From a virus (lineage: Duplodnaviria; Heunggongvirae; Uroviricota; Caudoviricetes), in the IMG/VR virus record IMGVR_UViG_2617270968_000003, positions 1-16,694 of that record: a stretch of 16,694 bases of DNA. One strand, given 5' to 3'. Under the pieces are notes generated by a model that worked only from the letters and a program-made list of their open reading frames with translations, did not search any database and was not told the DNA's origin. Of this stretch, positions 1,623 through 16,694 are shown piece by piece; position 1 is the first letter of the stretch; each line of letters opens with the position of its first letter. The translations under genes and the position numbers were made by a program.

Positions 1623-1746
1623 ATGTCTGCACCTGCACTGCCTGATGTCAGAACAGTATTTTGATGAATTGCCAAGGTTACAATGGCACAAATACGGCAC
1701 AGGAGGAAACGTGGTGTATTTAAATATGGGGTAACTCTTTGATTTT

Positions 1747-3276
1747 AATGGTGCCGATAATAGGAGTCGAACCTACGACCTTCGCATTACGAATTATAAG
1801 AATCCACTTCTAATTCAAAGCATTACCCCATCAACACTGCGCTCACACGTCCCACCACATCAAAACATGTAAAGCCTTGCAAGCCATTGTGAGGCCTTAT
1901 GTGTCTCAGTTTTGTCCCACCTTGTATTACGACTTGCATAGCCAATGAAGATCAACGTGACGACAAACGGCGCAGCAGTCTTCTTTTCCTTCATACTTTC
2001 CCCAATCAGCATACATACTTTCTACCATAACTGTAGTGAATGTCTGTTATGAGCGAGCAAAAGAGATTCAATTACCGGGGAATTACTCCGACATAAGCTC
2101 TCCCAGAAACACCGGAACAGCGATTCGCATATTCTCTTCTATACTTTCAGTCTGACCGGCTGGAGATTTCATAGCAAGAAAATGGATGCGCCAAGACCTA
2201 TGCGGGAAAGAGGCTGAGGAAATAATTGCCGATAGCACTGTGCCCGCCGAAAAGTTATCTGGCACGCAATGACGCGCGTCCTTGGGGCATCAGGAATCAG
2301 AGAGCCAACTTAACAACCCATTATATATTATTTAACCGGACCGTTACATGTACAAAGTTCAATGATTAGTGATTCTGTGACGCCACATACAACCTAAGCC
2401 CCTGATATAAAACCAGTCTATGCAACACCTAAAAATCATATATGATAGGGTGATAAGTCAACGCGCAGTATAAAAATCAAGCTAAAAAATGCTTTCAGCA
2501 TAGTGAATCTATTTCACACTACATAATTAAGGATGAAAAAATGACTGCACCAGTAATTAGTTTTATCAATATGAAAGGTGGGGTTGGTAAAACAACTTTA
2601 TGCGTTGGGATTGCTGAGTTTTTAGCCAACCATATGGGGCGCAAGGTTCTAGTTATCGATATTGATCCTCAATTTAATGCCACTCAGTCCTTAATGGGGC
2701 ATTATGATCGAGTAGAAGAATATATGACTGCCCTTCGCCCTAATAATCAAACCATTCGAAAGATTTTTGAGCTTCCAAATTCATTAATGGAAGATGAAAA
2801 GAAAGTGACACCAGAACAGGTCATTACTAAAGTTTCAGACAATCTTGATATTATCTTAGGTGATATAAACATTATCTTTGATACTAACCAAGAGGGTATT
2901 AGAATAAAAATGTTGCGTAAATTCATCACCGAAAATGACTTAAAAGAAAGTTACGACTATATCTTTATCGATAGCCCCCCAACAATCTCATTATTTACAG
3001 ATACCGCACTCCTTGCTTCTGATTATTATCTTACTCCGGTTAAAATTGATCACTACTCGGTGCTTGGAGCAAGCAGTTTAAATAGCGTTATAAGAAATAT
3101 GCGCACACATCATGAGAAAGAAATCAAGCAAGTCGGTTACATTTATACAAACACTGATGCTGAAATGACCAATAAAACAAGGGAAATTAAAGAGCAATTC
3201 GAAAACCATACTCAATTTACAAATTTTTATTTCTTTGAAAATCAATTAACCTACGTGCGTGATTTAATGGTAGGTT
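1747..3276. repeat. Direct repeat copy 1 (about 1530 bp) of the element's left end: att fragment, 745-bp leader, 5' 736 nt of ParA-like gene
   Basis: Matches 15165..16694 at offset 13,418; verified by eye at both ends and at internal points; two 60-aa ORF translations in the track are identical between copies. Confidence 0.85.
1749..1794 (-). other. 46-nt 3' fragment of tRNA-Thr(CGU) (thrW-type) - attachment-site copy (ptwF-like tRNA pseudogene), copy 1
   Basis: Plus strand reads TGGTGCCGATAATAGGAGTCGAACCTACGACCTTCGCATTACGAAT, the reverse complement of a tRNA 3' end (CCA, acceptor stem, T-arm GGTTCGACTCC, anticodon loop with CGT); similarity stops where the 5' half of a tRNA should be, so the gene is partial. 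Confidence 0.8.
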
Positions 3277-7512: not shown

Positions 7513-8085
7513 ATGATGCCATTTGCTCGTTATTTCTGCATTTTCATAAACGTTGGTTTGGGAGAAGGTGCTCCAGCTATTGGCGTTCCGTTCTTCTGGC
7601 CGTCCGCCGCAATGCCAAATACTGTAATCGACAGTTGGTCCAGTATGGTGTTTTTGAAGTTCAACGGCGCGAAATTCTCTGCCACTGATTACCCTGTGCT
7701 GGCGAAAGTGTTTCCGGCGCTAGCATTACCTGACGCACGGGGTGATTTCATTCGTATCTGGGATGATGGGCGCGGGATTGATGTCGGACGTACCCTACTT
7801 TCAGGGCAATCACACACAATTATGGATCATGCACACAATATGGAATTGTGGACGGGGGACGGGCTTGCCGCAGGAAGTGCACGGGAAGGAGTAAACCCAG
7901 GAATACTGGCTACATACGGTGACGGGGGAATAGTTAAAACGGACGAACCCGGTCTTAAGGTGCCTTCCTCACTACGAGCTCTTAGCTCTCGTAGTGTTAA
8001 ACGTTATGGTGAAATTAGTGGAAATGTAGATACAGAAACCCGTCCACGAAATATTGCATTTAACTTTCTGGTGAGGGCTAAATAA
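7513..8085 (+). CDS. Phage tail-fibre C-terminal fragment (tail-collar domain), 190-aa ORF; probably a remnant
   Basis: PFFWP...MPNTVIDSW...NGAKFSATDYPVLAKVFP...LPDARGDFIRIWDDGRGID fits the phage tail-collar pattern; C-terminal ...ETRPRNIAFNFLVRAK is tail-fibre-like; no N-terminal anchoring region and no other structural genes nearby. Confidence 0.5.
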   Translation: MMPFARYFCIFINVGLGEGAPAIGVPFFWPSAAMPNTVIDSWSSMVFLKFNGAKFSATDYPVLAKVFPALALPDARGDFIRIWDDGRGIDVGRTLLSGQSHTIMDHAHNMELWTGDGLAAGSAREGVNPGILATYGDGGIVKTDEPGLKVPSSLRALSSRSVKRYGEISGNVDTETRPRNIAFNFLVRAK

Positions 8086-8146
8086 TGATACCTGTTTTTG
8101 ATGAAAATGGGCTGGCTACAGTGCCGGGCGATATGCGTTGTTTTTA

Positions 8147-8320
8147 TTATAATGCAGTATCCCCTTCACAACGGTGAGCCACACGCCCACTCTGACGTAA
8201 CTTGCTTGCTGACTGCTGAACGCGCTGCCGCGAGTAACCAGCAAAAGCATCCGCAATGTCTCCGGAAGTACACCCCGGATTGGCTTCAATGAATTTCTGA
8301 ACGTCATTTAACAGACTCAT
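8147..8320 (-). CDS. Small hypothetical protein (57 aa), possible winged-helix DNA-binding protein, coupled to the replication gene
   Basis: ATG at 8320 lies 2 nt after the TGA stop of the upstream gene, with an AGGGGG SD; translation MSLLNDVQKFIEANPGCTSGDIADAFAGYSRQRVQQSASKLRQSGRVAHRCEGDTAL; under 60 aa so absent from the ORF track. Confidence 0.4.
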   Translation of the reverse strand: MSLLNDVQKFIEANPGCTSGDIADAFAGYSRQRVQQSASKLRQSGRVAHRCEGDTAL

Positions 8321-8322
8321 GA

Positions 8323-9264
8323 TCACCCCCTGAATCCTGCCGGGATCTGGCTGTAGTCCACGTTGTCGTAACTGGCTTTGAAGTACGGGTCTTCACGTTT
8401 TTCTGTGTGCGTGCTGACGGACGGCGATAAGCGCAGGGAAAGCTCATCCCATTTTTCCCGCAACTTCGACGGGCTGAGCACGTTACGGCACCAGAACGGA
8501 TCGCGGCTGACGCGGCTGTACATCTCGCAGATTTGTTTGTGAGTACGACCATCCTGCACACACATCAGGCGAATTTCGTTTGCCCAGGCTGTCCAGTTAG
8601 GTTCTTTGGGACGAACCACCTCGCCGTCACATTCGGCGGCCTGCTCGTACAGGGCGATGATTTTTTTCCAGAGCCACTGTGCGCAGGTCAAATCATCCTG
8701 CGTTCCCCACTGGCGCTTTTTAGAGCTGAATACAACCGCATCAGGATGACGAGTTAAAAAATCCTGTTCATCCTTCTTCATGTCCGGTTGCGAAGCGTCC
8801 GGACGAGAAGTTTTTTTATCTGACGGATCATGTTTTGATTTTACTGACGGATCCCCGCCAGATTCTGACGGGTGAAAACCCGCTTTTTTGCCAGATTTCG
8901 ACGCATCAAATTTTGACGGGTCAGATTTTGATGCGTCAGATTTTGACGGGTCAGAATCTGACAGTTGAGAAAATGCCGCTGCCTGAAGCTTCGCAACGTT
9001 AAGCTGATAAACATTCGACGCATTGCGGTTACCCTGGCGACGCGCCTTACGCGTTAACCAGCCTTCTGCTTCCAGCCGTGCGATAGCCGTTCTGACGGTA
9101 CTCATCCCCGCGCCAATCTGGCGGGCAATGGTTTCAATTGATGGCCAGCACACACCTTCGTCATTACTGAAATCAGCCAGGCGGGCCATAATTGCCACGC
9201 TGGATAACTTCATGCCTGACGCAGCGCAACCATCCCATACATAGCCGGTTAATTTAGTGCTCAT
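8323..9264 (-). CDS. Phage replication initiation protein (lambda O-like: N-terminal winged HTH, pentapeptide-repeat linker, C-terminal domain), 313 aa
   Basis: N-terminus LSSVAIMARLADFSNDEGVCWPSIETIARQIGAGMSTVRTAIARLEAEGWLTRKARRQGNRNASNVYQLN resembles replication-initiator wHTH domains; GAGG SD before ATG at 9264; position after cro/CII genes on the same strand. Confidence 0.65.
   Translation of the reverse strand: MSTKLTGYVWDGCAASGMKLSSVAIMARLADFSNDEGVCWPSIETIARQIGAGMSTVRTAIARLEAEGWLTRKARRQGNRNASNVYQLNVAKLQAAAFSQLSDSDPSKSDASKSDPSKFDASKSGKKAGFHPSESGGDPSVKSKHDPSDKKTSRPDASQPDMKKDEQDFLTRHPDAVVFSSKKRQWGTQDDLTCAQWLWKKIIALYEQAAECDGEVVRPKEPNWTAWANEIRLMCVQDGRTHKQICEMYSRVSRDPFWCRNVLSPSKLREKWDELSLRLSPSVSTHTEKREDPYFKASYDNVDYSQIPAGFRG
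8861..8964. repeat. Imperfect tandem 15-bp repeats (GATTTTGACGGGTCA-like, about 6 units) inside the replication-initiator gene, encoding DPSKS/DASKS pentapeptide repeats
   Basis: Units at 8861, 8894, 8909, 8924, 8939 and a partial one at 8954; protein shows SDSDPSKSDASKSDPSKFDASKSGKK. Confidence 0.8.
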
Positions 9265-9273
9265 GACCGACCT

Positions 9274-9612
9274 CTATTTCCCTGAATTTACGACGAAACT
9301 GTTCGAGCGGGCTGAAGCACTCATGCTCATAGCCTTCGCGGAGGTAGATAACCCGTTGTGTTTCCGGCTCCCAACGAATGACTCTGACGGGTACTCCGTA
9401 GTGATCTTTGAACCAGCGGTTAACTTGTCGCAAAGGACTGTCTCCTTCTGCCGGTTGAAATCACCCACAGCCCACTCTGCAAAGCTGTGGGTTACAATTT
9501 CCCTGTCACCTGGTACATTCACTGCATAGCAATATTCCACCTTCGCTTTTCCACCCGGTACAGGAAGCGCAATCAGTTGCGAGCGACGGTAGTGTGTTGT
9601 TAAACTGTTCAT
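9274..9612 (-). CDS. Hypothetical protein, 112 aa, between CII-like and replication genes
   Basis: ATG at 9612 overlaps the CII-like stop as ATGA; GGAGA SD 9 nt upstream; stop 9 nt before the next gene's SD. Contains a 9-bp perfect hairpin at 9463..9492. No recognisable domain. Confidence 0.45.
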
Positions 9613-10178
9613 GCGTTAGTTTCTCCACAACCAGAAGCAATCGACGCCACGACGCCCGGAGCTGCACACTCGCGGGCGTCATTACTTTCTGAAATGCAAA
9701 AAATTTTGTAAACAAGTGCTGCATGCTCCTGCAGCTTCGAAATTGAGAGATACAGCTCGTCGTTAATTGCTGTCTTCTCATGCGGTTCCACTACACCGTC
9801 TTCGATTGCTGAACGAATCTGTTTTGAATAACTGCCGATCTGTTCAATGACTTCCAGCAGACGCTGGTTAATATCGGCGTTGTCCACATCCTCGACGTCA
9901 GGAAGAGACACAAAGACGCCATTTGCAGACTGCGCCACAGCATCAGCAATGAAGTGAGTGCCACCAGCACGCTGTAAAACCATTGCCCATCCCAGCGGGA
10001 AAATCTGATCGCCATCTGCACGAAGGCGGTTGAATAAAGCGTTTTCTGTTACATCGAGCCAGTCAGCCGCTTCAGCGTAACCACCCGGCAACGCCGCGAT
10101 AGTTTTTCTGACAGCTTTCACGTACCACTCAGGCTGTTTTTCTATTTTCCAGTGATGCTTACCCACGATTAGCCTCAT
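9609..10178 (-). CDS. Phage regulatory protein, CII-like (CP76/YdaT-like family), 189 aa
   Basis: Immediately downstream of the cro-like gene on the same strand, as lambda cII is; size and context fit the enterobacterial prophage CII-like family; family assignment is from memory. Confidence 0.5.
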
Positions 10179-10209
10179 CGTTCTGTGGTTAAAAATTGAA
10201 AGTGTTCTG

Positions 10210-10410
10210 CTAATCTTTCGGATAGATATCCGGTCTTAAGTCAGATTTCGTAATTGCACCTGACGTGCATTGCTCAAGTTTTTTAGCCAGCACAAAACTG
10301 GCTTTTTTATAGCCATTGAAAACCAGCCGTAAGTAGCCAGGTGTTGAGCCAACTTTTCCGGCCAACTCGCCCTGCTGTTCTTTGGTTAAAGAGTCCCAAT
10401 ACGATTTCAT
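10210..10410 (-). CDS. Cro/YdaS-like HTH transcriptional regulator, 66 aa
   Basis: ATG at 10410 with GGAGG SD 9 nt upstream; MKSYWDSLTKEQQGELAGKVGSTPGYLRLVFNGYKKASFVLAKKLEQCTSGAITKSDLRPDIY resembles Cro/YdaS-type HTH proteins; divergent from the cI-like gene. The longer 167-aa ORF in the track is an upstream extension without SD. Confidence 0.65.
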   Translation of the reverse strand: MKSYWDSLTKEQQGELAGKVGSTPGYLRLVFNGYKKASFVLAKKLEQCTSGAITKSDLRPDIYPKD

Positions 10411-10500
10411 ACGATATGTACCTCCGGTGTACATATTACATGATTGAAATGAACCTTCAAGATACTTGTACCTTAACGGTACAAGGGTTTTAATTTCGTT
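10411..10500. promoter_or_regulatory. Divergent cI/cro intergenic control region with two palindromic operator-like sites
   Basis: Inverted repeats ATGTACCTCCGGTGTACAT (10416..10434) and CTTGTACC-TTAAC-GGTACAAG (10465..10485), both built on TGTACC/GGTACA half-sites, between divergent repressor and cro-like starts. Confidence 0.6.
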
Positions 10501-11175
10501 ATGAAAACAATCCATGACATCCGGCGGTCTAACGCCAGAAAACTGAGAGATGGTGTTGGCGGGAATTCTTCCTTTGCCACTATGATTGATCGCGAGCCAA
10601 CCCAGACCAGCAGGTTTATGGGAGATGGTGCTACTAAAAATATCGGTGACAGCATGGCACGACACATCGAAAAATGTTTCGACCTGCCTGTCGGATGGCT
10701 CGATCAAGAACACCAGACAACGAACATCACAAAAAAACCTGATGTTTCAATCACTAATAAACAAATCACATTAGTCCCTGTCATATCATGGGTACAGGCC
10801 GGAGCATGGAAAGAAGTTGGATATTCTGAGGTTGATTTGAGCACAGCAGAAACGTATCCCTGCCCTGTACCCTGTGGGGAAATGACTTATATCTTGCGGG
10901 TGATAGGTGATTCAATGATTGATGAGTACCGCCCGGGAGACATGATTTTTGTCGATCCTGAAGTACCTGCCTGCCACGGTGACGACGTTATTGCATTGAT
11001 GCACGATACAGGTGAAACCACCTTCAAAAGGTTGATAGAAGATGGGACACAGCGTTATCTCAAAGCGTTAAACCCAAACTGGCCTGAGCCTTACATTAAG
11101 ATCAACGGTAATTGCTCTATAATTGGAACTGTGATTTTCTCAGGAAAACCAAGAAGATACAAAATCAAAGCCTAA
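10501..11175 (+). CDS. CI-like phage repressor with C-terminal S24 (LexA-like) autopeptidase domain, 224 aa
   Basis: C-terminal VIGDSMIDEYRPGDMIFVDP...GDDVIA (S24 Ser site GDSM, later Lys); divergent from cro-like gene; no SD upstream of the ATG, so possibly leaderless like lambda cI from PRM. Confidence 0.75.
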   Translation: MKTIHDIRRSNARKLRDGVGGNSSFATMIDREPTQTSRFMGDGATKNIGDSMARHIEKCFDLPVGWLDQEHQTTNITKKPDVSITNKQITLVPVISWVQAGAWKEVGYSEVDLSTAETYPCPVPCGEMTYILRVIGDSMIDEYRPGDMIFVDPEVPACHGDDVIALMHDTGETTFKRLIEDGTQRYLKALNPNWPEPYIKINGNCSIIGTVIFSGKPRRYKIKA

Positions 11176-11187
11176 TCAATGTTTATG

Positions 11188-11210
11188 AACCTGCTTCGGC
11201 AGGTTTTTTT
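11188..11210 (+). terminator. Rho-independent terminator after the cI-like gene
   Basis: AACCTGC-TTCG-GCAGGTT hairpin followed by TTTTTTT, 13 nt after the stop. Confidence 0.75.
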
Positions 11211-11214
11211 ATAC

Positions 11215-11243
11215 TTGACAATGTACCCTTGAGATACATAATG
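11215..11243 (+). promoter_or_regulatory. Sigma70-like promoter (TTGACA, 17-nt spacer, ATAATG) overlapped by two direct AATGTACCC repeats
   Basis: TTGACA at 11215..11220 and CATAAT/ATAATG at 11237..11243; the repeats share the TGTACC half-site seen in the cI/cro operators. Confidence 0.5.
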
Positions 11244-11323
11244 TACCCAAGAGAAACAACAAACAGGCAGAACGCCCACGAAGTAGCCGCCTGGGGCATA
11301 TGAAGTCCAGGATGATTCGTTAG

Positions 11324-11351
11324 CAACAAAAAAGCGCCCTACAGGACGCTT
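11324..11351 (-). terminator. Rho-independent terminator on the minus strand (8-bp stem with one G-U, UGUA loop, U-run)
   Basis: Minus strand reads AAGCGUCC-UGUA-GGGCGCUU followed by UUUUUUGUUG; on the plus strand the hairpin lacks a U-run. Confidence 0.55.
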
Positions 11352-11409
11352 AGCTCTTTAACAATCTGGTCCCCATCAACAAGTAACTGATAACTTGAGG
11401 AGGTGTGAA

Positions 11410-11616
11410 ATGCACAAAACAGAACCCAAAATCGTCGCGCCCGGATACACAAATGAGGAAATTTACGAGTGGATGGCAAAGAAGCTGGCAGCTATAAACC
11501 AGCTTCGTGAAGTGCTGTCTTATCGACAGGAAATAATAGACTCCTTAAAAAAACTGGATCAGGAAATCACGGTTTTATCACAGGATGTTACTTTAGATAT
11601 TGTGCAGACAAATTAG
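11410..11616 (+). CDS. Small hypothetical protein, 68 aa
   Basis: ATG at 11410 with GAGGAGGTG SD; coiled-coil-like composition; 3' end overlaps the convergent 144-aa gene by 29 nt. Confidence 0.5.
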   Translation: MHKTEPKIVAPGYTNEEIYEWMAKKLAAINQLREVLSYRQEIIDSLKKLDQEITVLSQDVTLDIVQTN

Positions 11617-12022
11617 GATCCCATTCATTTTCGTCAAAATCATCAAAGTGATGAATTTGTGATCTCCAGTCTCGATAATCTAAAAATTTCTGGGCGGTTA
11701 CGCTTATTTTATCAAGTGTGAGTTCATCCTGAATTGAAAGAAGAAGTTCATCAAATTTCATCTCATTAATCTGTTTTGGCATCCAGTGATGCTTCATCAG
11801 AATAAGGTGAACCAGAGCCTTTTTCCCATTCAACTGATTATAGGGAGTGCCGAATTTCTTCCGGTGCTCATGTAAGACAAGGTCCAGAAGAGTAAGTAAT
11901 GTTGCCCTTGATTCGACTTTGCTTATTTCGACTGATGACACTACCCCACTGATTTCAATGCCCCGATACTTTCCAACATTTTCACAGTGGGATTTGTACA
12001 GCGTGTAGATATTACCGGACAT
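11588..12022 (-). CDS. Hypothetical protein, 144 aa; orphan accessory gene in the immunity region
   Basis: ATG at 12022 with AAGGAAAAG SD; AT-rich; no recognisable domain; sits where lambdoid phages carry rex/sie-type exclusion genes. Confidence 0.55.
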   Translation of the reverse strand: MSGNIYTLYKSHCENVGKYRGIEISGVVSSVEISKVESRATLLTLLDLVLHEHRKKFGTPYNQLNGKKALVHLILMKHHWMPKQINEMKFDELLLSIQDELTLDKISVTAQKFLDYRDWRSQIHHFDDFDENEWDPNLSAQYLK

Positions 12023-12099
12023 TTCTTTTCCTTTTGCGTTGTTGGGGATAACCAGATTAACCGAATCCTTGTTGTTGGGGAATAACCAGGTCCACCTCG

Positions 12100-12500
12100 C
12101 CTGATGTGGCTAAAAGCAGGCACATAACAGCTAAGTATTTTCAACCAGAGAGAATCCTTAGCGTTGTGGTGAATGCGGCTCAGCGCACGCGGGTTAAGGT
12201 TGAGGCTGACAGTCGACCTTCTGTGGATACCTACCCGCCTGGTGTGCAACCTTCGCCAGGCACCGGGAGGCACCCGGCACCACAACTTTATGCTGTGTGT
12301 AGTCCTGGCGGTACCAGTTTGTACCCTTGCTTCCGGCTGGTACCGTCCTTTTTACAAAACAGAGAAGAGCATCACCGGACGACGGGCTCATAACCCAATC
12401 CATCCGGGCGGCTGCCACCGCAGGTGTTCTTCTCTGTTTTGTGGAGAAACTAACCGCCCCTGCGGGGGCATCTATTGAAACGTAATTGACTCAATAATCG
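12100..12500. other. GC-rich, hairpin-dense non-coding block upstream of the early operon; candidate structured RNA and/or operator region
   Basis: ORFs open in several frames on both strands (typical of GC-rich non-coding DNA); 15-bp perfect inverted repeat 12354..12368 / 12428..12442; 9-bp hairpin 12309..12317 / 12337..12345; further GC hairpins at about 12237..12262, 12263..12280 and 12456..12470. Confidence 0.4.
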
Positions 12501-12567
12501 CCGGATGGTGAGGGCTTCCTTTTCCCAAAATTCAGCGCGGTGCAGCGCATATAAAGTGGAGAACGAA

Positions 12568-13104
12568 ATGTCATTTATTAAAACTTTTTCCGGGAAGCAT
12601 TTTTATTATGACAAGATAAATAAAGACGACATCGTTATTAACGATATCGCGGTTTCCCTTTCAAATATCTGCCGCTTTGCCGGTCATCTTTCTCACTTCT
12701 ACAGCGTCGCCCAACATGCGGTGCTTTGCAGCCAGCTGGTGCCGCAGGAATTTGCTTTTGAAGCTTTAATGCATGATGCAACAGAAGCATATTGCCAGGA
12801 CATCCCCGCACCACTGAAACGACTTCTTCCTGACTATAAACGGATGGAAGAAAAAATAGACGCCGTAATCCGTGAGAAATACGGGTTACCTCCTGTTATG
12901 AGCACGCCAGTGAAATATGCCGATCTCATTATGCTGGCAACCGAACGCCGCGATCTCGGGCTTGATGATGGCTCTTTCTGGCCTGTGCTGGAAGGTATCC
13001 CGGCAACAGAGATGTTCAACGTGATTCCACTGGCTCCAGGCCATGCCTACGGGATGTTTATGGAACGCTTTAACGAATTATCGGAGTTACGCAAATGCGC
13101 ATGA
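12568..13104 (+). CDS. HD-domain metal-dependent phosphohydrolase (YfbR/YfdR-like 5'-deoxynucleotidase family), 178 aa
   Basis: H...HD...D pattern (SVAQHAV, LMHDATEAY, QDIP); ATG at 12568 with GGAG SD; the track's 12505 start has no SD. Confidence 0.65.
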   Translation: MSFIKTFSGKHFYYDKINKDDIVINDIAVSLSNICRFAGHLSHFYSVAQHAVLCSQLVPQEFAFEALMHDATEAYCQDIPAPLKRLLPDYKRMEEKIDAVIREKYGLPPVMSTPVKYADLIMLATERRDLGLDDGSFWPVLEGIPATEMFNVIPLAPGHAYGMFMERFNELSELRKCA

Positions 13105-13457
13105 ATGTTTTCGAAATGGAAGGGTTTCTTCGTGGGAGATGTGTACCGCGAGATCTGAAAGTGAATGAAACGGATGCTGAATACCTAGTGCGTAAATTCG
13201 ATGCGCTTGAAGCTAAATGTGCAGCACAGGAAAACAAAGTAATACCAGTGTCAACTGAACTGCCACCAGCAAATGAAAGTGTTTTGTTATTCGATGCTAA
13301 CGGAGAAGGCTGGCTAATTGGCTGGCGTTCTCTCTGGTACACCTGGGGACAAAAAGAAACCGGAGAATGGCAGTGGACATTTCAGGTCGGGGACCTTGAA
13401 AACGTCAATATCACTCACTGGGCAGTAATGCCAAAAGCACCGGAGGCTGGAGCATAA
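13095..13457 (+). CDS. DUF551-like phage protein, 120 aa
   Basis: Trp-rich C-terminal half (GWLIGWRSLWYTWGQ...WQW...THWAVMP) typical of DUF551 prophage proteins; start overlaps the HD gene stop; GGAG SD. Confidence 0.5.
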   Translation: MRMNVFEMEGFLRGRCVPRDLKVNETDAEYLVRKFDALEAKCAAQENKVIPVSTELPPANESVLLFDANGEGWLIGWRSLWYTWGQKETGEWQWTFQVGDLENVNITHWAVMPKAPEAGA

Positions 13458-13762
13458 TGACCACTTTTACCGACAAAGAACTGATTAAAGAAATTAAAGA
13501 GCGTATCAGCAGCCTTGACGTGCGAGACGATATTGAGCGCCGTGCTTATGAAATCGCACTCCTATCTCTGGAAGTAGAACCAGATGAACGCGAAGCTTAT
13601 GAATTATTCATGGAAAAGCGTTTTGGTGACTTAGTAGATCGTCGGAGAGCAAAAAACGGCGATAACGAATACATGGCATGGAATATGACTCTCGGTTGGA
13701 TCGTCTGGCAGCAACGAGCTGGTATCCATTTCTCAAAAATCTCACAGCAAGAGGTGAAATAA
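13457..13762 (+). CDS. Hypothetical phage protein, 101 aa
   Basis: ATG overlaps the previous stop (TAATG); stop overlaps the xis start (TAATG); part of a coupled operon. Confidence 0.5.
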   Translation: MTTFTDKELIKEIKERISSLDVRDDIERRAYEIALLSLEVEPDEREAYELFMEKRFGDLVDRRRAKNGDNEYMAWNMTLGWIVWQQRAGIHFSKISQQEVK

Positions 13763-14112
13763 TGGAGCCATACAGCCTCACACTCGATGAGGCCTGTCAT
13801 TTTCTCAAGATATCCAGACCGACTGCCATTAACTGGATACGCACAGGGCGTCTTCAGGCAACACGCAAAGATCCCACTAAGAATAAATCTCCTTACCTCA
13901 CAACACGACAAGCCTGCATTGCGGCTCTTCAGTCTCCGCTGCATACTGTCCAGGTGAGCGCGGGTGATGGCATAACAGAGGAAAGAAAATGTCACTCTTC
14001 CGCAGAGGTGAAATATGGTACGCCAGTTTCACATTGCCGAACGGTAAAAGATTTAAACAGTCTCTTGGAACAAAGGACAAAAGGCAGGCGACAGAACTCC
14101 ATGACAAGCTAA
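13762..14112 (+). CDS. xis: Excisionase (Xis/AlpA-type HTH), 116 aa, overlapping the integrase start
   Basis: [37 protein letters not shown] matches the excisionase-family HTH pattern; GAGGTG SD before ATG at 13762; 3' 124 nt overlap the integrase in another frame. Confidence 0.65.
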
Positions 14113-15152
14113 AGGCTGAAGCATGGCGGGTCAGCAAACTTGGTGAAATACCTGATATAACGTTCGAGGAAGCGTGTGTCAGGTGGCTTGAAGAGAAAGC
14201 ACATAAAAAATCACTGGACGATGACAAAAGCCGGATCGGATTCTGGCTTCAACATTTCGCAGGAATGCAACTAAGAGACATTACTGAATCAAAAATTTAT
14301 TCAGCAATGCAGAAAATGACGAACCGGCGTCATGAGGAAAACTGGAGACTCAGGGCAGAAGCATGCAGAAAAAAAGGGAAACCTGTTCCAGAATACACGC
14401 CAAAACCAGCGTCCGTTGCAACGAAGGCTACGCATCTTTCATTTATAAAGGCCCTACTAAGAGCCGCAGAGCGTGAATGGAAAATGCTGGATAAGGCACC
14501 AATTATTAAAGTGCCTCAACCAAAGAATAAACGGATCCGCTGGCTGGAGCCCCATGAAGCACAAAGGCTGATTGATGAATGTCCGGAGCCATTAAAGTCT
14601 GTTGTTGAATTTGCACTGGCAACAGGTTTAAGACGCTCGAACATCATCAACCTTGAATGGCAACAAATAGATATGCAGCGCCGGGTGGCATGGATAAACC
14701 CGGAAGAGAGTAAATCAAACCGCGCAATTGGCGTTGCGCTGAATGATACTGCATGTCGCGTATTGAAAAAACAAATCGGGAATCATCACCGTTGGGTATT
14801 TGTGTACAAGGAAAGCTGTACCAAACCAGACGGAACGAAAGCGCCAACAGTAAGGAAGATGCGGTATGACGCAAACACAGCCTGGAAAGCGGCGCTGAGA
14901 CGGGCTGGTATTGATGATTTCAGATTTCACGACTTGAGACACACCTGGGCAAGTTGGCTGGTTCAAGCCGGAGTCCCGTTGTCAGTGTTACAGGAAATGG
15001 GAGGCTGGGAGTCTATCGAAATGGTTCGTCGATATGCTCACCTTGCACCTAATCACCTTACCGAACACGCACGGCAAATAGACTCGATCCTGAACCCATC
15101 GGTCCCAAATTTGTCCCAGTCAAAAAATAAGGAAGGTACTAATGATGTGTAA
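13989..15152 (+). CDS. int: Tyrosine-type site-specific recombinase (phage integrase), 387 aa
   Basis: N-terminal arm-binding-like [34 protein letters not shown]; C-terminal catalytic [12 protein letters not shown] ... MVRRYAHL (R-H-R-Y); ends 14 nt before the tRNA-fragment att copy. Confidence 0.85.
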
Positions 15153-15166
15153 CTTATTGATTTAAA

Positions 15167-15212
15167 TGGTGCCGATAATAGGAGTCGAACCTACGACCTT
15201 CGCATTACGAAT
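15167..15212 (-). other. 46-nt 3' fragment of tRNA-Thr(CGU), attachment-site copy 2, directly after int
   Basis: Identical to the fragment at 1749..1794; again followed by element-left-end sequence instead of the tRNA 5' half. Confidence 0.8.
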
Positions 15213-15958
15213 TATAAGAATCCACTTCTAATTCAAAGCATTACCCCATCAACACTGCGCTCACACGTCCCACCACATCAAAACATGTAAAGCCTTGCAA
15301 GCCATTGTGAGGCCTTATGTGTCTCAGTTTTGTCCCACCTTGTATTACGACTTGCATAGCCAATGAAGATCAACGTGACGACAAACGGCGCAGCAGTCTT
15401 CTTTTCCTTCATACTTTCCCCAATCAGCATACATACTTTCTACCATAACTGTAGTGAATGTCTGTTATGAGCGAGCAAAAGAGATTCAATTACCGGGGAA
15501 TTACTCCGACATAAGCTCTCCCAGAAACACCGGAACAGCGATTCGCATATTCTCTTCTATACTTTCAGTCTGACCGGCTGGAGATTTCATAGCAAGAAAA
15601 TGGATGCGCCAAGACCTATGCGGGAAAGAGGCTGAGGAAATAATTGCCGATAGCACTGTGCCCGCCGAAAAGTTATCTGGCACGCAATGACGCGCGTCCT
15701 TGGGGCATCAGGAATCAGAGAGCCAACTTAACAACCCATTATATATTATTTAACCGGACCGTTACATGTACAAAGTTCAATGATTAGTGATTCTGTGACG
15801 CCACATACAACCTAAGCCCCTGATATAAAACCAGTCTATGCAACACCTAAAAATCATATATGATAGGGTGATAAGTCAACGCGCAGTATAAAAATCAAGC
15901 TAAAAAATGCTTTCAGCATAGTGAATCTATTTCACACTACATAATTAAGGATGAAAAA

Positions 15959-16694
15959 ATGACTGCACCAGTAATTAGTTTTATCAATATGAAAGGTGGG
16001 GTTGGTAAAACAACTTTATGCGTTGGGATTGCTGAGTTTTTAGCCAACCATATGGGGCGCAAGGTTCTAGTTATCGATATTGATCCTCAATTTAATGCCA
16101 CTCAGTCCTTAATGGGGCATTATGATCGAGTAGAAGAATATATGACTGCCCTTCGCCCTAATAATCAAACCATTCGAAAGATTTTTGAGCTTCCAAATTC
16201 ATTAATGGAAGATGAAAAGAAAGTGACACCAGAACAGGTCATTACTAAAGTTTCAGACAATCTTGATATTATCTTAGGTGATATAAACATTATCTTTGAT
16301 ACTAACCAAGAGGGTATTAGAATAAAAATGTTGCGTAAATTCATCACCGAAAATGACTTAAAAGAAAGTTACGACTATATCTTTATCGATAGCCCCCCAA
16401 CAATCTCATTATTTACAGATACCGCACTCCTTGCTTCTGATTATTATCTTACTCCGGTTAAAATTGATCACTACTCGGTGCTTGGAGCAAGCAGTTTAAA
16501 TAGCGTTATAAGAAATATGCGCACACATCATGAGAAAGAAATCAAGCAAGTCGGTTACATTTATACAAACACTGATGCTGAAATGACCAATAAAACAAGG
16601 GAAATTAAAGAGCAATTCGAAAACCATACTCAATTTACAAATTTTTATTTCTTTGAAAATCAATTAACCTACGTGCGTGATTTAATGGTAGGTT
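15959..16694 (+). CDS. ParA/MinD-like ATPase, second copy, 3' end beyond window
   Basis: Identical to 2541..3276 of copy 1 by the repeat offset; same Walker A motif. Confidence 0.8.
   Translation, partial: MTAPVISFINMKGGVGKTTLCVGIAEFLANHMGRKVLVIDIDPQFNATQSLMGHYDRVEEYMTALRPNNQTIRKIFELPNSLMEDEKKVTPEQVITKVSDNLDIILGDINIIFDTNQEGIRIKMLRKFITENDLKESYDYIFIDSPPTISLFTDTALLASDYYLTPVKIDHYSVLGASSLNSVIRNMRTHHEKEIKQVGYIYTNTDAEMTNKTREIKEQFENHTQFTNFYFFENQLTYVRDLMVG

Follow-up and report, generated by a model that had tools for sequence, protein, structure and literature searches.

The locus under study lies in the window, by which we mean the whole 16,694-nt stretch of phage DNA analysed here, between the immunity region and the early-left operon. 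The first gene of that operon is here yfdR, because yfdP and yfdQ have been deleted. The features of the region were as follows.

11187-11206: cI terminator, directly followed by PL/OL
11215-11258: PL/OL, with the operators TGTACCCTTGAGATACA and TGTACCCAAGAGAAACA of the TGTAC..(G/A)TACA type
11215-11220 and 11237-11242, plus strand: TTGACA and CATAAT of the PL promoter, with a 16-nt gap (11 of 12 consensus matches)
11410-11616 (plus strand) and 11588-12022 (minus strand): a moron pair between PL and the block
12092-12129, plus strand: module A, a conserved 38-nt segment at the 5' edge of the block
12130-12142 with 12150-12162, plus strand: arms of a 5' hairpin that matches the 5' part of the Rfam STnc100 model
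12162-12306, plus strand: body of module 1, a multi-stem junction
12163-12171 with 12278-12286, plus strand: closing helix P1 of module 1 (GUUGUGGUG/CACCACAAC)
12263-12277, plus strand: hairpin P5 of module 1, CCGGG-AGGCA-CCCGG, adjoining the 3' strand of P1
within 12287-12306, plus strand: conserved single-stranded linker GCUGUGUGUAGUC
12307-12347, plus strand: stem of the intrinsic terminator of module 1, including the 9-bp GGTACC arms, followed by U5 at 12349-12353
12349-12447, plus strand: module 2 (also Module C), a three-way-junction leader RNA that starts inside the terminator U-run
12349-12373 with 12423-12447, plus strand: P1 of module 2, including the 15-bp perfect repeat
12375-12407, plus strand: P2 of module 2
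12383-12396, plus strand: tip of P2, CGGGCUCAUAACCC, with three G-C pairs and the loop CUCAUAA (anticodon CAU)
12408-12421, plus strand: P3 of module 2
12455-12470, plus strand: small GC hairpin 3' of module 2
12569-13104, plus strand: yfdR (5'-deoxynucleotidase)

The arrangement of the cI terminator and PL/OL is the same in ST64B, F1055 and sal3. Module A is 97% identical in Cronobacter phage phiES15 (L006, positions 2501-2538) and is also present in SfV, F1055, sal3 and Kp4866-6; a minus-strand moron always precedes it. The yfdP-yfdQ deletion junction falls at the 12455-12470 hairpin, with microhomology at 12456-12467, and in most of the other loci examined a small hairpin of variable sequence occupies the equivalent spot before the first gene. 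Part of the region was present in 3018 of the 5426 complete E. coli genomes searched; the block was absent from CPS-53 of E. coli K-12, which was checked for it.

The sequence-only reading had singled out 12100-12500 as a GC-rich block dense in hairpins and open in several frames, and this description held. The GC content was 0.55-0.56 at 12100-12400 versus 0.35-0.44 in the flanks, and 56-99 codons were free of stops in five of the six frames. The perfect 15-bp inverted repeat was confirmed (ACAAAACAGAGAAGA at 12354-12368 versus TCTTCTCTGTTTTGT at 12428-12442, with a 59-nt spacer) and lengthened to 25 nt at 84% complementarity; it was the longest perfect inverted repeat with a loop of up to 100 nt, the maximum in 300 dinucleotide shuffles being 11 bp. 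The 9-bp hairpin was likewise present (CGGTACCAG at 12309-12317 and CTGGTACCG at 12337-12345), and it was judged on comparative evidence and not on its length, because a 9-bp repeat on its own arises in about 9% of shuffles. The plus strand of 12100-12500 folded with a minimum free energy (MFE) of -167.8 kcal/mol (z = -7.35), a value equalled or bettered in 0 of 100 shuffles, and the minus strand reached z = -3.0 against its shuffles. Four candidate identities had been offered for the block, and the correct one was a structured regulatory RNA other than put or a retron: the block consists of two separable RNA modules on the plus strand, at 12162-12352 and 12349-12447. Module 1 occurs without module 2 in phiES15, and module 2 occurs without module 1 in a Mixta prophage. 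The two-module make-up had escaped the sequence-only reading, as had the relation of one module to a described sRNA family.

The covariance-model search suggested for the block gave a divided answer for module 1. At the gathering threshold, Rfam returned no match in the whole window; with an E-value threshold, a relation to STnc100 (RF02076) surfaced at 12133-12355 on the plus strand, spanning model positions 1-206 of 206 (43.1 bits, E = 6.7e-8). Since this score is below the curated gathering cutoff of 47 bits, module 1 falls outside strict STnc100 membership, and the sister copies in SfV, phiES15, sal3 and ST64B score 35-41 bits. In structure, module 1 has the multi-stem junction closed by P1, the GGUGAAU joiner, the CCGGG-AGGCA-CCCGG hairpin abutting P1 and the 3' Rho-independent terminator that characterise STnc100. 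Covariation was found in P1, P3 and P5 in an alignment that mixed early-left and late-region copies; the stems covary and the loop and joining nucleotides GGUGAAU and AGGCA are invariant. A T-run stands at the place of the terminator in 129 of 132 loci, and in ST64B, F1055, Kp4866-6, phiES15 and many genera the terminator stem has been swapped for unrelated complementary sequences with a U-run. No consensus sigma-70 promoter was found between the moron and module 1. In many late-region copies, the same core lies directly before a start codon, about 25 nt after P1 and without a terminator; such copies are no less suggestive of a cis-regulatory element than of a trans-acting sRNA.

The closest characterised relative is sRNA-17 of E. 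coli K1 RS218, a 193-nt RNA of an mEp460-like prophage defined by 5'/3' RACE and Northern blot (Sun et al. 2020, PMC7719688). Its sequence was rebuilt from the published full-length primers and then located in mEp460; exact copies were found in mEp460 and Stx2a-WGPS2, each with module 2 downstream of it. The orientation of the published primers (PMC7719688) places sRNA-17 on the yfdP-sense strand. It shares with module 1 both the strand and the slot between the immunity region and yfdP/yfdR, and in addition its first 16 nt (CGUUGUGGUGAAUGCG, identical from the RACE-mapped 5' end), the closing helix and the GGTACC terminator (95% identical); its 3' RACE end sits in the U-run of this near-identical hairpin. 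In contrast, the two RNAs differ in the internal arms of their junctions and align poorly from P1 to the terminator. Module 1, whose common ground with sRNA-17 is limited to the 5' 16 nt, the terminator and the 3' strand of P1, is a variant of it and not the same RNA. The authors of that study found no relative in Rfam, and their description leaves out the three-way junction downstream (PMC7719688). They reported that yfdP and yfdR rise in the sRNA-17 deletion mutant (PMC7719688), an effect that is ambiguous, as the deletion primers spare the terminator and transcription from the resistance cassette may extend into yfdP.

Expression of STnc100 copies has been seen in EHEC, confirmed in one case by Northern blot, and the STnc100-related PasD of EPEC and EHEC prophages was found by Hfq RIL-seq; PasD has many mRNA contacts on Hfq and so, according to the Pas authors, has STnc100. 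Module 1 resembles both in the GGUGAAU junction, the CCGGG-AGGCA-CCCGG hairpin, the terminator and the lambdoid prophage setting. Unlike in STnc100, its first internal hairpin departs from the consensus, and the canonical STnc100 location is the late region, in the neighbourhood of Q, esterase, stx and holin genes, whereas module 1 lies in the early-left leader. Judged by sequence and predicted fold, module 1 is a member of a prophage sRNA superfamily that holds STnc100, PasD and sRNA-17, and these three are independently given names for members of one family. Homology with sRNA-17, STnc100 and the Pas sRNAs predicts a discrete Hfq-associated sRNA from module 1.

Module 2 folded with an MFE of -51.2 kcal/mol (z = -7.6). 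Compensatory base changes, which had been proposed as a check of the block, were present: alifold and pair counts gave 36 pairs, 97.8% paired, with nine pairs doubly changed (0 of 500 shuffles). A covariance model of the module scored 113.6 bits on the plus strand versus 36.8 bits on the minus strand, and the G.U pairs of P1 become A.C if read from the other strand. The tip of P2 (CGGGCUCAUAACCC) is identical in 14 of 14 positions to positions 29-42 of E. coli tRNA-fMet, a level reached in 0 of 2000 shuffles, and the identity ends exactly at the three initiator-specific G-C pairs. Of the anticodon arm, the mimic retains just the loop and the three uppermost base pairs. The motif GGGCTCAT[A/T]ACCC, in a stretch left unconstrained in the search pattern, was kept in 116 of 127 copies, and conservation of the tip persists across copies in which P1 and P3 vary; some lineages alter A37 and A38 of the tip.

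Several other identities were considered for parts of module 2. ARAGORN reported no tRNA in the window or in eight related loci, and the Rfam tRNA model had no match at E <= 10 in the window; a tRNA or tRNA-like gene was rejected, as neither program saw a cloverleaf and the anticodon stem-loop alone is copied. A tiny ORF, (A/G)UG GAG AAA..., at the 3' foot of P1 was also rejected, its peptides being unrelated across phages and its sequence overlapping a covarying hairpin. The boxA of rrn operons is GCUCUUUAAC, and a boxA-like reading of GCUCAUAAC was weaker than the 14/14 identity to tRNA-fMet. Inspection of related loci showed no conserved pairing of the CAU loop with downstream start regions; such pairing exceeds the AUG in only some lineages. 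The junction of module 2 was absent from Rfam 15 and from the searchable literature, and literature searches on a phage initiator-tRNA mimic, a VapC decoy and the literal motif returned nothing relevant. Module 2 is apparently undescribed, and it is widely conserved.

Module 2 recurs across Enterobacterales prophages, including phages of Shigella and Salmonella, and usually lies just past a terminator and before the first early-left gene. Its distance to the first start codon of the operon is 25-50 nt in most loci; in the window, yfdR begins about 120 nt away, a longer gap that results from the deletion of yfdP and yfdQ. As yfdP, the natural first gene, has been lost, module 2 may be a relic in this window. 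In the Mixta prophage, a PL-like promoter region is followed by the junction and a yfdP-like gene. A second class lies between Q/tR' and the holin gene, as in L279, where the order is Q, isrJ, junction and holin S. In the holin-leader class, as well as in a Pantoea MAG and an Acidobacteriaceae MAG, the tip is kept although P1, P2a and P3 are wholly replaced. The genes that follow module 2 include yfdP, rdgC-like, holin and endolysin genes.

The reading that we favour, to which we assign a probability of roughly 60% with the roles included, is that the block is a structured non-coding leader of the early-left operon, made up of two independent plus-strand RNA modules. The non-coding status, both structures, the family relation, the geometry of the terminator, the conservation and the genomic context are observations. 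As for the roles, most transcripts in a lysogen would stop at the terminator of module 1 and be released as a small RNA of about 190 nt, which here, too, may act in trans. The terminator would also keep transcription out of the early-left genes as an insulator. Module 2 would be made only when RNA polymerase passes the terminator, and its arm would then present a copy of the initiator-tRNA anticodon stem-loop. We infer that module 2 acts in cis, as a 5'-UTR element: it would engage a factor whose usual target is the anticodon arm of the initiator tRNA, and would in this way determine how well the read-through mRNA is translated or how stable it is. Among such factors, the 30S P site together with IF3 is the candidate that would best fit the conserved features.

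The remaining identities offered for the block fared poorly. In favour of a decayed protein-coding gene, NCBI PGAP annotates a 'hypothetical protein, frameshifted' in the identical E. coli locus, over the stretch that corresponds to 12166-12485; there are also ORFs of 95 and 101 codons, and some phage records carry the labels 'hypothetical protein' or 'YfdP'. However, similarity to homologues runs in five frames at once and only in the patches of the RNA modules, compensatory changes preserve the helices, no frame is open across distant homologues, and Pfam gave no match; the sequence-only reading had been right to call the block unlikely to be coding. The block had further been placed at the position of lambda PL/OL, with OL operators as a possible content; PL/OL is located about 850 nt upstream, and the cI-type motif (TGTAC-N7-GTACA type) is lacking in the block, being found only at OR (10417-10483) and at 11222-11258. 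The GGTACC hairpin was rejected as an operator, as it is 95% identical in the hetero-immune mEp460 and Stx2a-WGPS2, which have TTGCGCAA-type operators, and is replaced by an unrelated hairpin and a U-run in ST64B, F1055 and Kp4866-6. A retron msr/msd remnant is contradicted by the inverted repeat being P1 of a junction conserved in many phages, and neither the identical E. coli locus nor the annotated related-phage regions examined carry a gene annotated as a reverse transcriptase. We regard a decayed gene, OL operators or a retron remnant, taken together, as barely credible. An RNA of the HK022 put kind, for processive antitermination without a protein, is very unlikely too, whether formed by the block or by one module. 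The putL and putR sites offer a parallel as structured RNA in the early-operon leaders of a lambdoid phage without N; no N-like gene is evident here either, expression of xis and int requires passage through the terminators of the early-left leader, and module 2 comes first after the PL-like promoter region of the Mixta prophage. HK022 put RNA consists of two stem-loops of about 70 nt, an architecture different from a multi-stem junction and a three-way junction, and its region lies directly after PL, whereas the block is about 850 nt away from it. BLAST against HK022 22000-30000 (nun-PL-cI-cro), which includes PL and the put sites, gave only E >= 2.2. Module 2 lies downstream of the terminator that it should suppress in 129 of 132 loci, and its holin class coexists with the Q antiterminator. 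Moreover, module 1, as judged by its relatives, would give an abundant terminated RNA in lysogens, so it probably does not suppress its own terminator constitutively, and a better put candidate lies right after PL, at 11262-11322.

Other explanations accept the two modules and assign them different roles. Module 1 might be mainly a cis-acting attenuator, riboswitch-like or protein-binding, with the junction as sensor, the terminator or a nearby Shine-Dalgarno region as expression platform, and the RNA seen on blots as a terminated by-product. This is improbable but deserves serious attention: one core is coupled to two platforms, a terminator (early-left copies and Rfam STnc100) or a start codon (late-region copies), its loop and joining nucleotides are invariant in the midst of covarying stems, and it lies in sense orientation in an operon leader. 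Against it, no antiterminator pairing conserved across the variants was found, PasD makes contact with many mRNAs on Hfq, as does STnc100 according to the Pas authors, and the internal arms of phiES15 and mEp460-type copies are very different, which is unusual for a ligand pocket. For module 2, a mere processing or stability hairpin (an RNase III site, 5' protection or a block to Rho loading), with the tRNA-fMet identity as a relic, seems unlikely. The long, nearly perfect P1 would suit it; RNase III hairpins are known in lambda-type leaders such as the N leader and sib, and tRNA-derived sequence is frequent in phage genomes. A relic should decay first, yet the tip is the most conserved part of the module and survives the replacement of P1, P2a and P3, and it is precisely at the three initiator-specific G-C pairs that the identity breaks off. 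Somewhat less likely still is a trans-acting decoy that sequesters a nuclease of the VapC/MvpT type, specific for tRNA-fMet, or is cleaved by it in place of that tRNA, and so protects phage translation. The copied part is exactly the region of tRNA-fMet concerned (positions 29-42), phages of Shigella and Salmonella bear it, and phage tRNAs that counter tRNA-targeting defences are an established idea. RNase III cleavage of P1, which has about 25 bp including G.U pairs and a perfect run of 15, and is long enough for this enzyme, could free a tRNA-sized piece. However, the placement is of a cis type, 15-50 nt before a start codon and behind a terminator, A37 and A38 beside the VapC cut site are changed in some lineages, and the literature search found no paper joining phages, VapC and a decoy.

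Two known systems offer parallels to the leader that we propose. The E. coli thrS operator includes a leader hairpin that imitates tRNA-Thr, binds ThrRS and overlaps the ribosome binding site. Like module 2, it copies a tRNA anticodon stem-loop before a start codon; unlike it, module 2 mimics the initiator tRNA, on a three-way junction and 25-50 nt from the start. The thrS operator regulates through its own product, ThrRS, whereas module 2 precedes unrelated genes (yfdP, rdgC-like genes, holins) and its partner is putative. Lambda 6S RNA is the promoter-proximal terminated RNA of the lambdoid late operon, and it and isrJ resemble module 1 as short terminated RNAs before an operon that needs terminator override. 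The order Q, isrJ, junction and holin in L279 parallels the order sRNA, terminator, junction and early-left genes in the window. In contrast to the late operons, the early-left copy has no known Q-like protein or Q binding site, and the equivalence of roles is suggested by gene order.

In the early-left leader of SfV-, ST64B- and mEp460-type phages, a sub-family of the STnc100/PasD/sRNA-17 family has gone unrecognised; NCBI PGAP currently labels it a frameshifted pseudogene. Module 2 heads early-left, holin and endolysin operons, including lysis functions, that are to be silent in the lysogen. As a tentative proposal, and one that we hold to be possible but not probable, it may represent an undescribed, widespread class of phage leader RNAs that mimic the anticodon arm of the initiator tRNA, follow terminators under antitermination control where early-left and lysis operons start, and engage the 30S P site/IF3 or a tRNA-fMet-specific nuclease, thereby gating the translation or survival of mRNAs that are silent in the lysogen. 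Should the mimicry prove functional, temperate phages would have a new means of tying expression of their early-left and lysis operons to the translation-initiation machinery or, alternatively, of evading tRNA-targeting toxins.

The window is a lambdoid prophage remnant, and its positions 7953-15212 are identical to a prophage integrated at thrW in E. coli BS74R-D; the IS66 element of that otherwise identical locus is missing from the window. Tandem or att-flanked copies of the element are suggested by a 1546-bp direct repeat (1731-3276 and 15149-16694, 99.8% identity) that reaches from the integrase gene's 3' end into a ParA-family gene. The GC-rich block at about 12100-12500 lies in the following gene order:

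minus strand, ymfL and cro-like ymfT
10501-11175, plus strand, ymfK, cI/LexA-like
11410-11616, plus strand, small ORF
11588-12022, minus strand, 'ECs1072 family' gene
12023-12568, gap of 546 nt
3' of the gap, yfdR, three small genes and integrase

Unlike mEp460 (L002 323-511), ST64B (L003 409-597) and SfV (L004 226-414), which carry a C4 antisense RNA and isrK (both above the Rfam gathering score) within an ant-like regulator gene, the window has neither.

The block had been placed at the position of lambda PL/OL-nutL, but the promoter and operators were found at 11215-11258 instead: a near-consensus promoter (TTGACA-16-CATAAT, 11215-11242) directly 3' of the cI terminator, and two operators (11222-11258) matching in type those of the cI-cro gap. 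This layout recurs in ST64B, F1055 and 118970_sal3 (sal3). The ST64B leader extends unbroken for ~700 nt between PL and the first early-left gene. The leader in the window carries an inserted moron pair, and yfdP and yfdQ, the two genes that begin the early-left set and lie 3' of the block in SfV, mEp460, ST64B and Stx2 phages, are deleted between two small GC hairpins (12-nt microhomology at 12456-12467; compare SfV, L004 3366-3377 and 4670-4681). The deletion joins the two hairpins, so that the leader now adjoins yfdR, and the block is thus the distal part of the early-left leader. In E. coli K-12 CPS-53 (L270 6400-6540, 5' of yfdP), the whole block is missing and iteron-like repeats (TTTTGACGGGTCAGA / TTTTGATGCGTCAGA) stand upstream of yfdP in its place. 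The 12039-12129 unit contains direct repeats, GTTGTTGGGGA(A)TAACCAG, in two copies 34 nt apart; 3' of them lies a 38-nt segment (12092-12129) with 97% identity to its counterpart in Cronobacter phage phiES15. Always 3' of a minus-strand moron in related phages and missing in moron-free ST64B, this unit may be a control region or recombination boundary of the moron cassette.

All features described in the sequence-only reading were found in the block. The 15-bp perfect inverted repeat is beyond chance (maximum of 11 in 300 dinucleotide shuffles), and 12100-12500 folds with z = -7.35 on the plus strand and -3.0 on the minus strand. The view that the block is unlikely to be coding was upheld. Stop-free stretches exist in five frames, and the 'match' of each to homologues is confined to patches corresponding to the RNA modules described below; no frame is open throughout in ST64B, phiES15, Kp4866-6, F1055 or mEp460, and Pfam gave no match for the two longest ORFs. 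The PGAP label 'frameshifted hypothetical protein' on the equivalent of 12166-12485 was rejected on the same patchy five-frame similarity and lack of a conserved open frame. The proposed put, retron and OL-operator identities each failed on a defining feature, the retron one on the lack of an annotated reverse transcriptase in the identical E. coli locus and in the annotated regions of related phages; against an operator, the window's version of the GGTACC hairpin keeps 95% identity in the hetero-immune mEp460 and Stx2a-WGPS2. The remaining proposal, another structured regulatory RNA, was borne out by two covarying structures, module 1 (12162-12352) and module 2 (12349-12447), both on the plus strand and both with double changes in alignments of relatives.

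The suggested Rfam search, run at permissive thresholds, aligned 12133-12355 (+) to the whole STnc100 model at 43.1 bits (E 6.7e-8), below the gathering score of 47; copies occupying the corresponding position in SfV, phiES15, sal3 and ST64B scored 35-41 bits. The junction of module 1 is closed by GUUGUGGUG/CACCACAAC (12163-12171 with 12278-12286), and in other copies the counterpart of its hairpin CCGGG-AGGCA-CCCGG reads CCUGG-AGGCA-CCAGG or GGUGG-AGGCA-CCACC. Double changes were present in 8 of 25 predicted pairs in an eight-sequence alignment mixing early-left and late-region copies. The terminator is the 9-bp GGTACC hairpin followed by U5; ST64B, F1055, Kp4866-6, phiES15 and many genera have other complementary sequences as the stem, again with a U-run after it. 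Sun et al. (PMC7719688) described a 193-nt 'sRNA-17' from an mEp460-like prophage of E. coli K1, visible on Northern blot and with ends mapped by 5' and 3' RACE. Their primers place it on the yfdP-sense strand, with its 5' start at CGTTGTGGTGAATGCG and its 3' end in the U-run of the same GGTACC hairpin; mEp460 and Stx2a-WGPS2 carry exact copies. The window shares with sRNA-17 the first 16 nt, the 3' strand of helix P1 and the terminator, and differs in the internal arms. STnc100 has been related to Hfq-bound PasD sRNAs (2026 preprint), and its copies are expressed in EHEC. With sRNA-17 and STnc100/PasD as its closest known entities, the STnc100 match and the shared features place module 1, as a variant, in a known superfamily of prophage sRNAs.

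Module 1 would yield a terminated ~190-nt RNA in lysogens, its terminator shielding the early-left genes. Deletion of sRNA-17 raised yfdP ~96-fold, and yfdR also rose (PMC7719688), which is compatible with shielding but ambiguous, because the terminator was retained and the resistance cassette may read through. At many viral loci (e.g., L135, L137, L139), terminator-less STnc100-type cores (GGTGAATGCGGCT...CCTGGAGGCACCAGGCAC) lie ~25 nt 5' of the start codons of small late-region genes, which suggests cis-regulatory use of the fold and makes such a role possible for module 1 as well.

In module 2, a three-way junction (MFE -51.2 kcal/mol, z = -7.6) found in 56 distinct versions on 120 viral contigs, the 15-bp repeat forms helix P1. 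In an alignment of 21 diverse versions, 97.8% of cells at 36 pairs were paired and nine pairs had changed on both sides; none of 500 shuffles reached these values, and slid controls paired at only 39-54%. On the opposite strand, several of the conserved G.U pairs would turn into A.C, and the covariance model scored 113.6 bits on the plus strand versus 36.8 on the minus strand, so the folded species is plus-strand RNA. P1 and P3 vary freely, with P3 insertions of up to ~25 nt, and P2 is almost invariant. The P2 tip (12383-12396, CGGGCUCAUAACCC) is identical to positions 29-42 of E. coli tRNA-fMet, comprising three G-C pairs and the loop CUCAUAA; a common word of 14 was never reached in 2000 shuffles. 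The three G-C pairs are an initiator-specific feature, elongator tRNA-Met having the identical loop on a different stem. With a search pattern leaving the tip stretch free, GGGCTCAT[A/T]ACCC was kept in 116 of 127 copies; the anticodon CAT was altered in one singleton copy and the loop base preceding it in another. No Rfam 15 family matches module 2, and our literature search found no paper in which the tip motif is printed. The known system nearest to module 2 in principle is the thrS operator, another anticodon-arm mimic. By sequence, two T-arm-like hairpins (CTGGTTCGATTCCAG and GTCCGTTCAATTCGGAC) just 5' of the STnc100-like core appear to be further look-alikes of tRNA parts in the leaders of F1055 (L007 2600-2720), sal3 (L008 2385-2500) and Kp4866-6 (L005 2810-2930).

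Among species-representative genomes, module 2 was present in Escherichia, Shigella, Citrobacter, Enterobacter, Kosakonia, Mixta, Buttiauxella, Leclercia, Phytobacter, Pseudescherichia, Pseudocitrobacter, Erwinia and Klebsiella. The two modules are separable, since a Mixta prophage has the junction directly after a PL-like promoter region and no module 1, and phiES15 has module 1 and no junction. A T-run directly precedes module 2 in 129 of 132 distinct loci, and the first ORF, usually yfdP-like and sometimes rdgC-like or other, mostly starts 25-45 nt 3' of P1. In a second class, 5' of holin genes, unrelated stems carry the identical inner motif (GA-C-GGG-CUCAUAA-CCC-AA-UC). One such locus (L279) reads antiterminator Q (Pfam, 289 bits), isrJ, junction and holin S; in another (L278), the junction is preceded by two terminators and a canonical STnc100 scoring 84 bits, and followed by a LydA-type holin and a GH108 endolysin. 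The tip also recurs outside Enterobacterales, on a hairpin 5' of a small gene in an Acidobacteriaceae MAG. Common to these contexts is a structured leader that stands immediately 3' of a terminator and just 5' of the operon's first start codon, the terminator being overridden by antitermination, at least in Q-controlled late operons.

Module 2 would act in cis, in the 5' UTR of the read-through mRNA, and cis control of translation or stability ranks first among its putative functions. In the tip, the anticodon and the three G-C pairs specific to the initiator are conserved, and positions 37 and 38 may vary; recognition by MetRS would suit this pattern less well than recognition by the 30S P site with IF3 or by a nuclease specific for tRNA-fMet, such as VapC. 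Lower in rank are a vestigial processing hairpin, a VapC decoy and put-like antitermination, the put-like option being disfavoured because the junction sits behind the terminator and coexists with Q. If this N-less phage has a put-like element, the place to look is 11262-11322, which covers the first ~60 nt transcribed from PL. This stretch is conserved with the Salmonella phages ST64B, F1055 and sal3, with a compensatory change from CCUGG/CCAGG to CCGGU/ACCGG; HK022 putL occupies the equivalent place and shares a short 'CAGGATGA' stretch, with no significant BLAST similarity between the two regions.

With module 1 in a known family and module 2 lacking a described counterpart, one part of the block is ordinary, being a variant of a prophage sRNA already known, and the other is new, an undescribed, widespread leader motif that appears to mimic initiator tRNA and has a putative function in cis control.
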